Below are positions 4,185 to 57,392 of a stretch of DNA of 64,000 nt, one piece after another (position 1 is the stretch's first letter; each line of letters begins with the position of its first letter). The DNA comes from Candidatus Adlerbacteria bacterium RIFOXYC1_FULL_48_26. Its GTDB lineage: Bacteria > Patescibacteriota > Minisyncoccia > Phycocordibacterales > SBAW01. The DNA is taken from the NCBI GenBank assembly GCA_001773575.1, contig MEXB01000004.1, positions 10,217 through 74,216 on the forward strand, read 5' to 3'. The translations under genes were made by a program, and so were the position numbers. The notes under the pieces are model-generated. The model was not told where the DNA came from. It searched no databases and saw only the letters and a list, made by a program, of their open reading frames with translations.

Positions 4185-4221
4185 ATACCTCGGGACTAAG
4201 TTTCCCGAGGTATTTGTTTTT
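4185..4221 (+). terminator. Rho-independent terminator
   Basis: Hairpin aatacctcggga-ctaagttt-tcccgaggtatt followed by a T-run. Confidence 0.75.
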
Positions 4222-4234
4222 ATACACTAGGTGC

Positions 4235-5794
4235 ATGCAATATGCGCGCGTATACGGAGCCCAAACTTCGCTCCTAACTCCACATATTGTTTCGGTGGAA
4301 ACTGATCTCTCTAGAGGACTACACTCATTCACTATCGTCGGTCTTCCAGACAAAGCTGTAGAGGAAAGTCGCGACAGGGTAGCGGCGGCTATTAAACATT
4401 CTGGTTTTGATTCTCCCAAAAGCAGAAACCAGAGAATCGTAATTTCACTCGCGCCAGCAGACCTACGTAAAGAAGGGCCAATGTTTGACCTCGCCATCGC
4501 GCTTTCATATCTACTTGCCGCTGATGATATTCGTTTCGATCCAGAACATTATTTGTTTGTTGGAGAACTTTCTCTTGATGGGAACCTTCAGCCGGTGCGA
4601 GGGATTTTGCCGCTTGTCGCCGAAGCAAAGCGGAAGGGGAAGCGCGCCATATTTGTTCCAAAGAAAAACGAGAGGGAAGCGGCACTTGTAAGTGGGATCG
4701 AAGTGTACGGGGCAAATACGTTAGGAGAAGTTGTTGACCATGTAAACGAGAAATCCCGACGCTCCGGAGGAGGTCGGGATCCCGACCAAAGCGTCGGGAA
4801 AAGGCTCGAACCGACTCCACCCACAAAATTAGAGCCTTCCCTCCAAGAATCACAATTCGCGTTCGAAGATATCCGCGGGCAGGAGAGCGCAAAGCGCGCA
4901 GCCATCATTGCTGCAGCGGGCGGACACAACCTAGGGCTTAGTGGGCCACCCGGCACAGGCAAAACAATGTTGGCACGAGCTCTTGCCTCAGTCCTTCCTC
5001 CACTGTCGTTTGATGAAGTGCTTGAAGTAAATAGTATTCATTCCGTTGCGGGCGTATTACATGAAAAACTTTTAACCGTGCCTCCGTTCCGGGCACCCCA
5101 TCACACAGCAAGCTATGTTTCTATCGTAGGAGGAGGCAGTAATGTACGCCCAGGCGAGGTAACACTCGCGCATCGTGGCGTTTTATTTTTGGATGAATTT
5201 CCAGAATTTGATAGGCGGCTTATTGAAGCTCTACGTCAACCACTCGAAGATAGGGTTATTGCTGTTGCACGTGCAAAAGGCACAGCAGTATTTCCAGCAC
5301 GTTTCACCTTAGTCGCGGCAATGAACCCCTGCCCATGCGGCAACTATGGCCACCCGGACGTTGCCTGCACCTGTAGCCCTATGTCGCTTGAACGGTATAG
5401 AAGAAAAATTTCAGGACCTATAGCGGACCGCATAGATCTTTGGATTGTTATGGGGCCAGTAGATTTACCAGAACTTGGAAAAAAATCTGTGCGGGGCACA
5501 GAGACAGAAGCGGCGCGGACACAAGTGCTCGACGCCCGCGCAATGCAGCATGCACGCTATGGCACAGCGAAAACAAATAGTGATCTTTCGCCGCGCGAGT
5601 TAGAAAATTTTGTTCCGCTTACCGCAGGCGCCAGGGCAACATTAGAAAAAGCGGGGCAGAGGCTTTCGCTCTCTCCCCGCGCATTTCACCGTGTTATAAA
5701 AGTCGCTCGCACTATTGCAGACCTCGATGGTTCCCCCGACATTAACGAATCACACATCCTCGAAGCTCTGCAGTATCGACAACGGAAAACCTAG
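4235..5794 (+). CDS. comM: Mg-chelatase-like AAA+ ATPase, YifB/ComM family
   Basis: N-terminal Lon-protease-like domain (TIVGLPDKAVEESRDRV), Walker A GPPGTGKT, ChlI-type AAA+ core, and a C-terminal zinc motif CPCGNYGHPDVACTC. Start placed at the ATG downstream of the TTG at 4214. Confidence 0.9.
   Translation: MQYARVYGAQTSLLTPHIVSVETDLSRGLHSFTIVGLPDKAVEESRDRVAAAIKHSGFDSPKSRNQRIVISLAPADLRKEGPMFDLAIALSYLLAADDIRFDPEHYLFVGELSLDGNLQPVRGILPLVAEAKRKGKRAIFVPKKNEREAALVSGIEVYGANTLGEVVDHVNEKSRRSGGGRDPDQSVGKRLEPTPPTKLEPSLQESQFAFEDIRGQESAKRAAIIAAAGGHNLGLSGPPGTGKTMLARALASVLPPLSFDEVLEVNSIHSVAGVLHEKLLTVPPFRAPHHTASYVSIVGGGSNVRPGEVTLAHRGVLFLDEFPEFDRRLIEALRQPLEDRVIAVARAKGTAVFPARFTLVAAMNPCPCGNYGHPDVACTCSPMSLERYRRKISGPIADRIDLWIVMGPVDLPELGKKSVRGTETEAARTQVLDARAMQHARYGTAKTNSDLSPRELENFVPLTAGARATLEKAGQRLSLSPRAFHRVIKVARTIADLDGSPDINESHILEALQYRQRKT
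4754..4799 (+). repeat. Nested palindromic repeat element (copy 1), in-frame inside the comM linker
   Basis: tcccgacg-N11-gtcgggatcccgac-N5-cgtcggga. A second copy is at 57181-57220. Confidence 0.6.
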
Positions 5795-5795
5795 A

Positions 5796-6884
5796 CTAAT
5801 ACCCTACGCCAACCTTAAGGCTTGCGAATGGGTTTGTAGCACCGCGGACTTCGAAGTGGAGGTGGAAGCCGGTAGATTGACCAGTGGAGCCGACTTTGCC
5901 GATAACTTCACCCTGGTCAACTTGGGCACCAGGCGAGGTGAGCACTTTGCTCATGTGAGCATAGAGAGTTTGAGTTCCGTTTGGATGCTGGATAACTACG
6001 TAGCTTCCGTAACCGCCGTTCCATGCACCATTGCCGTTTGCGACGATGACAGTACCGCCCGCAGCTGCATAAATTGATGTTCCTTTTGGAGCACCAACAT
6101 CAACGCCGTTCCAACCGTGCAGTTTCTGTGTAATGACACCGCCTGCAACTGGCCATACGTAATATCCAGAGATAGATGGGCCAGAACCACCTAGATATGG
6201 TTCTTTTGTTTTACCGCTCGCAATATTTTTTATCTTAGTGGTGTTTGAATTTGATTTTGCAGGAGCTGGGGTCGAGAGCACGCCGTTTGGAATCAACAAT
6301 ACGTCACCAACAGTAAGAGCCTGTCCGTCAGCCAAATCGTTGTAGACCGCAATACCATGTGCGTCAGAGCTGTATTTCTTTGCCAACGACGACATGGTTT
6401 CTCCCTTAACAACTGTGTGTTGAATACCGGTGATAGGCAAAATGATAAGGGTCTGGCCTGGGCGTATCACGCCATTCTTAATATCGTTTGCTCCGATAAT
6501 GGTGTTTATTGAAACCTCGAACATATCGGCAATACCTGAAAGAGTGTCGCCTGGACGTACGGTGTAGACACTGATCTGCTGGTTTGTTGGCAAACTTTCA
6601 ATGTCAGCTGCTGTTCCAGAAGGCCCTTCCTGGGCGATAAGTGCTGAGCCATTAACTACAGTGATACCACCTCCACCAACCGAAGGGCTTGGGTCGAGGT
6701 TAACCGCTGGAGAAAGGAGGGTCATGCGCTGAGAATTGGAAGCTCCACCTGCCGCAACGCTTGTGGCAGCTGAACTATTCAAAAGGGAAGAAAAAATACT
6801 AGCGGAGGCTAGTATGGGCATACAAAACACAAAAGAGGCTGTGCTTAGGGTGAGCACGACCATAACGAACTTTTTAGCCTTCAA
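5796..6884 (-). CDS. Secreted LysM-domain M23 family metallopeptidase
   Basis: Signal peptide, two LysM motifs (YTVRPGDTLSGIA; HTVVKGETMSSLAKKY) and a C-terminal M23 signature (HLHFEVR). Confidence 0.85.
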   Translation of the reverse strand: MKAKKFVMVVLTLSTASFVFCMPILASASIFSSLLNSSAATSVAAGGASNSQRMTLLSPAVNLDPSPSVGGGGITVVNGSALIAQEGPSGTAADIESLPTNQQISVYTVRPGDTLSGIADMFEVSINTIIGANDIKNGVIRPGQTLIILPITGIQHTVVKGETMSSLAKKYSSDAHGIAVYNDLADGQALTVGDVLLIPNGVLSTPAPAKSNSNTTKIKNIASGKTKEPYLGGSGPSISGYYVWPVAGGVITQKLHGWNGVDVGAPKGTSIYAAAGGTVIVANGNGAWNGGYGSYVVIQHPNGTQTLYAHMSKVLTSPGAQVDQGEVIGKVGSTGQSTGFHLHFEVRGATNPFASLKVGVGY

Positions 6885-57170: not shown

Positions 57171-57237
57171 GCGCGCTTAGTCCCGACGCCTTGGTCGGGA
57201 TCCCGACAGAATCGTCGGGACTCAGTTGGTAGCCGCG
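57171..57237 (+). pseudogene. Degenerate 5' fragment of tRNA-Val interrupted by a 40-nt palindromic element
   Basis: GCGCGCTTAG + [41-nt insert] + TCAGTTGGTAG reproduces 21 of the first 22 nt of the intact tRNA-Val 11 nt downstream. Confidence 0.5.
57181..57220 (+). repeat. Nested palindromic repeat element (copy 2)
   Basis: tcccgacg-N5-gtcgggatcccgac-N5-cgtcggga, same architecture as 4754-4799. Confidence 0.6.
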
Positions 57238-57247
57238 TCATATATCT

Positions 57248-57320
57248 GCGCGCTTAGCTCAGTTGGTAGAGCAACTCATTTACACTGAGAAGGTCGGGGG
57301 TTCAAGTCCCTCAGCGCGCA
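57248..57320 (+). tRNA. tRNA-Val (anticodon UAC)
   Basis: Acceptor GCGCGCT/AGCGCGC, D-arm TAGCTCAGTTGGTAGAGC, anticodon loop UUUACAC, T-arm GGGGGTTCAAGTCCCTC. Confidence 0.85.
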
Positions 57321-57392
57321 CACAAATAGACCTTCTAATTAATATATTGGCGCTGCACTATTCTCCAGCAGAGCCCACAAGAAACAAGGTTT

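Follow-up and report, generated by a model that had tools for sequence, protein, structure and literature searches.

A window of 64,000 nucleotides from Candidatus Adlerbacteria bacterium RIFOXYC1_FULL_48_26 (the whole stretch of contig MEXB01000004.1 that was analysed) contains two copies of a small palindromic element, one lying in frame within a comM/yifB-type gene and the other next to a gene for tRNA-Val. The element belongs to a dispersed family with at least 110 full copies in other genomes, nearly all of them Patescibacteria or Omnitrophota; a full copy has all four arms, and the family counts given here and below (110 full copies, 121 cores) are among the matches listed. We consider it probable, at roughly 0.6, that the element is a non-autonomous double-hairpin repeat of these two phyla, similar to repetitive extragenic palindromic (REP) sequences and to Rickettsia palindromic elements (RPEs), and that it is copied by a hairpin-recognising enzyme acting in trans. 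The two copies and the host gene have the following window coordinates.

4214-5794, plus strand: comM/yifB-type gene hosting copy 1, a 526-aa frame.
4754-4799, no strand assigned: element copy 1, inside the comM/yifB-type gene.
4754-4760, arm 1 of copy 1, TCCCGAC; 4761-4772, loop 1, GCTCCGGAGGAG; 4773-4779, arm 2, GTCGGGA.
4780-4786, arm 3 of copy 1, TCCCGAC; 4787-4792, loop 2, CAAAGC; 4793-4799, arm 4, GTCGGGA.
57181-57220, no strand assigned: element copy 2, with arms at 57181-87, 57194-57200, 57201-07 and 57214-20 and with the loops GCCTTG (loop 1) and AGAATC (loop 2).

Both copies are built from four heptamers, TCCCGAC / GTCGGGA / TCCCGAC / GTCGGGA, which alternate in orientation and enclose two variable loops, of 12 + 6 nt in copy 1 and 6 + 6 nt in copy 2. 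Arms 2 and 3 abut with zero spacer, giving in each copy the layout TCCCGAC-loop-GTCGGGATCCCGAC-loop-GTCGGGA, and the arms of both copies are perfect. An earlier description made from the letters of the window alone (the sequence-only reading) had recorded the same arms and core with different spacers at these two places, and this was correct; the 12-mer it had singled out lies within the central perfect palindrome of both copies, whose length is 16 nt for copy 1 and 14 nt for copy 2. When as many as 2 mismatches were allowed, GTCGGGATCCCGAC matched the window exactly twice, against 0.07 matches expected, and two or more matches occurred in 0 of 100 shuffles. The eight TCCCGAC/GTCGGGA heptamers of the window all lie inside the two copies and none is free. 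When the scan was relaxed to tolerate as many as 5 mismatches in the arms, it returned only these two copies and no decayed further ones in the window, and nothing in 20 Markov shuffles; the density here is ~1 per 30 kb. Folded as RNA, both copies gave -28 to -34 kcal/mol on either strand (z -3.4 to -4.2). For copy 1 (-32.1 kcal/mol, z -3.4) the predicted shape was that of two adjacent hairpins, the first having its stem lengthened by CTCC/GGAG from within loop 1.

As a single strand the element forms two adjacent 7-bp hairpins (arms 1:2 and 3:4), and not the long imperfect hairpin that had been expected from the sequence alone. This fold is supported because independent compensatory variants keep the 1:2 and 3:4 pairings and break 1:4 and 2:3, by which one long hairpin (arms 1:4 and 2:3) was disfavoured. 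The compensatory arm pairs were CCCCGAC/GTCGGGG plus CTCCGAC/GTCGGAG in loci L028, L064 and L053, TCCCGAT/ATCGGGA in L019 and L063, TTCCGAC/GTCGGAA in L110 and CCCCGAC/GTCGGGG in L010, and in L093 both partners were likewise changed within arms 1:2 or 3:4. The stem extensions of loop 1 in ComM orthologues covary as well (CTCC/GGAG, CTCCG/CGGAG and CCCC/GGGG). In the resulting dumbbell the two flanks of the element meet at its foot, in the centre of the figure. The loops also show biases that the two-hairpin fold does not predict: the first base of loop 1 is G in 69% and the last base of loop 2 is C in 73% of the listed copies, in which a C before arm 2 or a G after arm 3 is almost never found; a G after arm 1 with a C before arm 4 would lengthen a 1:4 stem.

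Other members of the family were collected with the pattern TCCCGACN{3,20}GTCGGGATCCCGAC from one genome per species, yielding at least 117 loci, and the two copies known to the sequence-only reading thus proved to be part of a dispersed family. The Patescibacteria among the carriers represent many lineages and classes, including Saccharibacteria, Nomura-, Vogel-, Jorgensen-, Terry-, Taylor- and Zambryskibacteria as well as Kerfeld-, Falkow-, Doudna-, Gottesman- and Roizmanbacteria; the Omnitrophota include the closed chromosome of Velamenicoccus archaeovorus, with 3 loci. A few matches were three-arm chance hits in genomes of high G+C content, and some came from third-party (TPA) metagenome-assembled genomes whose labels, Gammaproteobacteria or Planctomycetales, are unconfirmed. 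From arm to arm the listed copies measure 34-77 nt, with a 39-nt consensus, TCCCGACGCTTCGGTCGGGATCCCGACTTTACGTCGGGA. Their loops are mostly of 4-6 nt and reach 33 nt, the long ones carrying hairpins of their own, and one identical loop pair, GCTTCG + TTTAC (GTAAA + CGAAGC on the other strand), recurs in different classes. The density of the element varies widely from genome to genome. Outside the elements the heptamer was observed 71 times against 54 expected, i.e. without depletion, and restriction-site avoidance was rejected on this ground. A known RNA family was rejected too, Rfam giving no match at the gathering threshold nor at E-values up to 10. The 14-mer occurred in no searchable paper and keyword searches on repeats of the candidate phyla radiation (CPR) or Omnitrophota gave no relevant result; the family is apparently undescribed so far.

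Some related structures were noticed among these loci. At L049:3680-3715 the sequence ACTTTAGttgaCTAAAGTACTTTAGtttgCTAAAGT has four arms and zero spacer, as in the TCCCGAC element, with a wholly different heptamer, and this architecture may be generic to a wider class of elements. At L100:4481-4539, in Velamenicoccus archaeovorus, all four arms are changed consistently, to TCCCGCC/GGCGGGA twice. Hairpins of the CCGCC...GGCGG type recur in loops and beside tRNA fragments (L001, L088 and L015).

The comM gene likely starts at ATG 4235, which gives a 519-aa product identical to P0001, and the homologues that match it best belong to the Patescibacteria group, Adlerbacteria and Paceibacterota. Pfam places a ChlI domain at aa 28-152 and the AAA+ domain Mg_chelatase at aa 217-415. 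Copy 1 encodes S181-G195 of the 526-aa frame (SRRSGGGRDPDQSVG) and lies in the inter-domain linker (aa 153-216), between the Lon-like (ChlI) and AAA+ domains as had been proposed, lengthening this linker by ~15 residues. Among 120 ComM orthologues the element was found directly after the N-(E/T)-K codon in P0001, P0003, P0007, P0017 and P0029, and at the same position in P0039, P0084, P0085, P0112 and P0115. At the DNA level five element-bearing orthologues had related loops, with a loop 1 of the GCTCC..GGAG type and CRRAGC as loop 2. The closest ComM orthologues (91-94% aa identity) have no intact element. In the closest relatives L118 and L119 (92-94% aa identity) the linker is shorter; their linker DNA, gagTCGGGGAaaCGcCag, resembles a partly deleted and decayed element, and L118 has no heptamer in 21.5 kb. 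Judged from these alignments, the ComM copy is old, being common to orthologues at 78-92% aa identity. Of the lineage-specific linker insertion suggested earlier, the absence of an intact element from the closest orthologues therefore stands, but its recent origin does not.

The arms have been kept in ComM to an extent that the coding sequence around them has not. Between the window and the element-bearing orthologues only 33-44% of the 4-fold degenerate sites of comM are identical, compared with 25-27 of the 28 bases of the arms. In L121, moreover, loop 1 is longer by 2 nt and 5 nt are missing after arm 4, so that the central arms encode VGIPT where the window has GRDPD. As the arms are kept while the reading frame differs, the constraint acts on the nucleic acid rather than the peptide. 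It could be explained by continued recognition by a trans-acting factor, by recurrent re-insertion into a hairpin hotspot, or by a host function. The AlphaFold model of ComM (mean predicted local distance difference test score 62.8, with a poor AAA+ domain) hints that residues 178-187, within the insert, may be disordered.

Further observations concern the same linker. Just past copy 1, at window positions 4800-4840, the peptide RLEPTPPT-KLEPSLQE may contain a short internal duplication (LEPT/LEPS); the DNA similarity is only 7/15 and could be due to chance. A second in-frame palindromic family, CCAAGGTTCGACCTT-N15-AAGGTCGAACCTT, occupies the same linker site in L148 (P0052) and L149 (P0111). 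It translates as QGSTL...GSSRSNL and appears also in the protein alignment of P0028, P0046, P0081, P0105 and P0107. In L148 this second family (AAGGTTCGACCTT...AAGGTCGAACCTT) lies within the loop of a TCCCGAC-element remnant, aagTCCCGCTCC|caaggttcgacctt, an arrangement suggestive of one element having inserted into the hairpin loop of another.

Coding copies are frequent in the family, as 44 of the 110 full copies (~40%) lie in open frames of at least 600 nt. In 32 of these 44 the arm-to-arm length is a multiple of three (binomial p = 1e-7), compared with 24 of 66 copies outside long open reading frames (ORFs; Fisher p = 2e-4). The bias shows that the intragenic copies are translated, i.e. read through by the ribosome, and mRNA splicing or translational bypass was rejected by it. 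The host genes encode ComM, SMC, SecA, UvrA, UvrC, GyrB, a PIF1-like helicase, IF-2, GatB (twice), NusA (twice), ComEC, a P-type ATPase and a leucyl aminopeptidase, and the copies are located at linkers or near the termini of these housekeeping proteins. The encoded inserts comprise 12-25 residues, e.g. VPT.VGIPT.VGK or SRR..GSGSRP..ASG. All three frames are used on both strands, the central peptide being VGIPT in 28, GSGSR in 14 and GRDPD in 2 copies, and the heptamers are free of stop codons in all six frames.

The surroundings of copy 2 are of a different kind.

57171-57180, plus strand: duplicate of tRNA-Val nt 1-10 (GCGCGCTTAG), directly 5' of copy 2.
57221-57232, plus strand: duplicate of tRNA-Val nt 11-22 (CTCAGTTGGTAG), directly 3' of copy 2.
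57233-57247, plus strand: 15-nt spacer (CCGCGTCATATATCT) between the interrupted fragment and the intact gene.
57248-57321, plus strand: intact tRNA-Val(TAC), 70.3 bits.

Copy 2 had been described as lying upstream of tRNA-Val, and it does end 27 nt before the tRNA-Val(TAC) gene; it is not simply upstream, however, since it splits a 22-nt duplicate of the 5' end of that gene. In the syntenic relative L134 (78-82% nt identity in the flanking genes) the leader abuts tRNA-Val directly, which represents an empty site, and the ~78 extra nt of the window correspond to the 22-nt tRNA duplicate, the 40-nt element and ~16 nt. By this comparison the tRNA-Val copy is a lineage-specific gain, an insertion rather than ancestral sequence. 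As the fragment matches the intact gene at 22 of 22 positions, the event is recent. The empty site, the 3n length bias and the more than 100 copies elsewhere bear out the earlier suggestion that this is a small repeat, mobile or structured, which coding sequence can tolerate.

The association with tRNA genes extends to other members of the family: 22 of the 121 listed cores are no more than 300 nt away from a tRNA gene, and ~20 of the 110 listed copies (~20%) are embedded in partial copies of tRNA genes. The partial copies are broken at tRNA positions 10-15, 27-28 or ~40 or in the T arm, and the matching intact tRNA is usually 14-270 nt away, the layout being A-[element]-B-spacer-A-B. Part of the tRNA leader is duplicated as well in L001, L035 and L053, and the duplication must therefore have taken place at the DNA level. 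Excision in silico, with 25 boundary variants per copy (shifts of up to 2 nt per side), gave a junction-spanning tRNA recognised by ARAGORN in 0 of 110 cases; as removal of the element never restores a tRNA, a tRNA intron was rejected. A promoter or terminator role at copy 2 was rejected too, no consensus match to either being found there. With regard to a possible duplication-first origin of the tRNA layout, partial tRNA duplicates also exist without the element (L088 and L115), where they adjoin other hairpin-rich inserts.

Several tRNA loci showed additional rearrangements. Duplicates of tRNA 3' ends (the last 17-22 nt) lie 150-220 nt downstream of the intact gene for tRNA-Ile in L099, tRNA-Thr in L001 and tRNA-Glu in L106; they are parted from the gene by hairpin-rich sequence, mirror the 5' fragments and resemble att-site scars. 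At L053 ~6079-6122 a tRNA 5' fragment is split by a diverged double hairpin (CTCCGAC..GTCGGGG / AGCCGAC..GTCGGCT), and upstream of tRNA-Met in L102 (4187-4260) a fragment is split by CTCCGAC..GTCGGAG / CCCCGG..CGGGG; to judge from these two loci some tRNA leaders hold two successive interrupted fragments. At L015 ~1470-1830 an insert of ~290 nt, which may be a group I intron, divides a tRNA gene (GCCGTTGTAGCTCAGTTGGTAGAGCAACTCCATGGT ... AAGGAGTAGGTCGTCGGTTCAATTCCGTCCAACGGCTC) at its anticodon loop; the gene adjoins an element-bearing fragment of the same tRNA.

Among known systems the element is closest to REPs and the composite forms derived from them, the bacterial interspersed mosaic elements (BIMEs) and the REP doublets forming hairpins (REPINs). 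Like these, it consists of short G+C-rich stem-loops, usually paired, dispersed and without coding capacity, found at unrelated loci (at least 110 full copies in other genomes and 2 in the window). The CGTC-tagged REP super-family includes Rickettsia RPE-4 and RPE-6 and Neisseria dRS3 (Di Nocera et al. 2013, PMC3733652). Intragenic REP dimers add 20-30 residues, often in the repair and replication genes uvrA, uvrB and recB; the CGTC families have no dedicated transposase nearby, and some families insert into pre-existing palindromes (PMC3733652). REPs are defined by an unpaired GTAG or CGTC at one end, with a 3-nt CCA-like tail in the CGTC families (PMC3733652). In the GTAG families alone, the repeats flank the gene of a cognate Y1 transposase. 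The present element likewise has intragenic copies with repair genes prominent, as do REP dimers and Rickettsia RPEs (PMC3733652), and the failure to find a transposase gene in ~1 Mb of its 8-kb flanks resembles the situation in the CGTC families. It differs from REPs in lacking GTAG, in having CGTC in ~70% of the outer arms in a paired state (1 loop base + 3 stem bases), and in lacking CCA or any conserved tail, position +1 being C in 55% and +2 A/T. Its two hairpins share the same stem and abut with zero spacer. Unlike REPs, it is also not predominantly extragenic and downstream of ORFs (44 of 110 copies in long ORFs and ~20 of 110 in tRNA fragments), and it is associated with interrupted partial duplicates of tRNA genes. 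Its stem core TCCCG/CGGGA resembles the dRS3 motif, ATTCCC...GGGAAT.

RPE-1 provides a parallel as a palindromic repeat that stands in frame in housekeeping ORFs, is translated and is tolerated in loops and linkers, again in host-dependent bacteria with small genomes. RPE-1 is ~100-150 bp long and confined to Rickettsia, whereas the present element measures 34-77 nt, shows no sequence relationship to RPEs and is hosted by Patescibacteria and Omnitrophota. The palindrome-associated transposable elements (PATEs) derived from IS200/IS605 have in common with it two similar hairpins on one strand, no target duplication and a plausible single-stranded intermediate. The element is far shorter than a PATE, however, with nothing between its hairpins, no fixed target tetra- or pentanucleotide, no guide sequences beside the hairpins and no TnpA found in the flanks. 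With Correia elements and other DDE-type miniature inverted-repeat transposable elements (MITEs) it shares small size, lack of coding capacity and terminal inverted repeats, TCCCGAC(G) and (C)GTCGGGA. Correia elements have 100-155 bp and a TA target duplication, but no duplication of 2-8 nt beyond chance flanks the present element. Thus, of the likenesses that the sequence-only reading had drawn, those to RPEs and REPs were retained and that to Correia elements or MITEs was dropped.

No target-site duplication was detected, direct repeats of 2, 4, 5, 6 and 8 nt being at permutation level and a slight excess of 3-nt repeats (8 observed vs 2.9 expected) being attributable to A-rich flanks. This is evidence against a DDE-type MITE such as Correia and fits single-strand peel-and-paste chemistry. 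The flanks show preferences only, namely G at -1 (54%), the C at +1 and A/T at +/-2, and elements nested within elements occur in L023 and L089. We propose that a hairpin-recognising enzyme, acting in trans, would copy the element, folded as a single strand, into new places; the best guess is a Y1/HUH enzyme of the REP-associated tyrosine transposase (RAYT) or IS200-IS605 kind. The preferred targets of the element would themselves be hairpin-forming, i.e. the D, anticodon and T arms of tRNA genes and the loops of older elements; such targeting is suggested by the ~20 copies in partial tRNA genes, the nested second family in L148 and the nested elements in L023 and L089. Insertions into tRNA genes would survive only with a short local duplication that leaves one copy intact, or when made into a pre-existing duplicate. 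The arms would be conserved by continued recognition by the mobilising factor or by some other factor.

A number of observations weigh against this proposal. Only two copies are present within the window, and the flanks contain no conserved target tetranucleotide of the IS200/IS605 type. No IS200-like ORF or TnpA was matched in ~1 Mb of 8-kb flanks with an approximate query, and no transposase or integrase recurs near the copies in these flanks, the recurring gene families being ribosomal proteins, EF-Ts, RF-1, LepA, ATP synthase and ComEC. Single hairpins able to flank an autonomous element are rare; together with the lack of an IS200-like ORF in the flanks this led to the rejection of an autonomous parent element. 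A scan of 2.9 million viral contigs gave 0 matches to the motif, by which a phage-borne element was likewise rejected. The A-[element]-B-spacer-A-B layout fits no simple target duplication and no attP x attB product, and we could fit no standard transposition or integration chemistry to it. Finally, heptamers that are identical across two phyla, and retention at one orthologous site in ComM despite near-saturating synonymous divergence, would not be expected of an element that is purely selfish; in REP families, co-evolution with the transposase and restriction to a species or genus are the norm.

Alternatively, the element could be a functional site maintained by the host: a structured DNA or RNA signal for a factor that Patescibacteria and Omnitrophota have both conserved. 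Such a factor might be a protein that binds hairpins or cruciforms and acts in replication, supercoiling, recombination or RNA processing, and the spread of the element would be secondary. The arms identical in both phyla, the ComM arms preserved through changes of frame at 25-27 of 28 bases with covarying loop stems and 33-44% identity at 4-fold sites, the pairing kept by compensatory changes with both window copies perfect, and the lack of a transposase in the flanks all speak for such a site. We nevertheless regard it as possible but doubtful, since the positions are scattered, some being in linkers or at termini of unrelated proteins and others between genes or in dead tRNA fragments, and since the element was lost in close relatives without obvious consequence (decayed in L118/L119, empty in L134). 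The uneven density among genomes, the lack of an Rfam match and the lack of a promoter- or terminator-like signal at copy 2 also argue against it. A further reading, in which the element is no decaying selfish repeat but a signal actively maintained by selection in two unrelated phyla of ultra-small bacteria, and in which a conserved hairpin-specific enzyme targets structured DNA such as tRNA-gene arms and generates or requires short local duplications, appears unlikely; if true, it would amount to a route of transposition or repair that has not been described for REP, MITE or IS200/IS605 elements.

The remaining explanations fare worse. Each hairpin, with a spacer of 4-7 nt between its arms, could be a core-type site of a tyrosine or serine recombinase, and the doublet the abutted attL + attR of an integrative element targeting tRNA genes. 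The arm-spacer-arm geometry with 7-bp inverted arms and modal loops of 4-6 nt, as well as the tRNA genes and partial tRNA duplicates, including the 3'-end duplicates in L099, L001 and L106, would suit this idea, but loops of up to 33 nt would not, and the covariation indicates intrastrand pairing and not duplex binding. The element also stands inside the duplicated tRNA segment instead of between its copies, which attP x attB recombination cannot yield, the majority of copies occupy ORFs that lie far from any tRNA, and no integrase recurs nearby; a recombinase footprint is thus very improbable. That the element is an RNA-level intervening sequence, cleaved and ligated out of mRNA or pre-tRNA, is hardly credible: the dumbbell would join the flanks and several copies do stand in tRNA-like sequence, but in-silico deletion never restored a tRNA recognised by ARAGORN, and the intragenic 3n bias and open ORFs would not be needed for splicing. 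Equally little can be said for a DNA-uptake signal, a restriction-modification site, or chance or ancestral coding sequence. Competence and repair genes (ComM, ComEC, UvrA, UvrC and SMC) are among the hosts, as for uptake sequences, and the core contains GGATCC. DNA-uptake signals, however, occur roughly once per kb in Neisseria and Haemophilus, and the element, with 2 copies in 64 kb and no free heptamers, is at ~1 per 30 kb far below such a density. A restriction site is opposed by the undepleted heptamer (71 vs 54), and chance is excluded by the word statistics and shuffles of the window. A peptide motif is excluded because the element is read in each of the three frames on either strand.

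The genomes of Patescibacteria and Omnitrophota are small, streamlined and usually described as repeat-poor. A repeat within essential proteins and at tRNA loci, where it yields pseudo-fragments, would affect the annotation of these genomes, and it offers a marker for exchange between the two phyla. It is also an unusually clean example of constraint at the nucleotide level inside coding sequence. The layout of an interrupted tRNA fragment beside an intact tRNA gives a handle on the movement of palindromic elements without a known transposase, such as CGTC-type REPs and Rickettsia RPEs. The identical arms in two phyla, the constraint at an orthologous coding site and the interrupted tRNA duplicates raise its interest above that of an ordinary repeat.

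A side observation concerns L117:3752-6139, where the GTPase domain of a LepA-type GTPase is interrupted by a PD-(D/E)XK nuclease domain (PF13366, aa 89-202).

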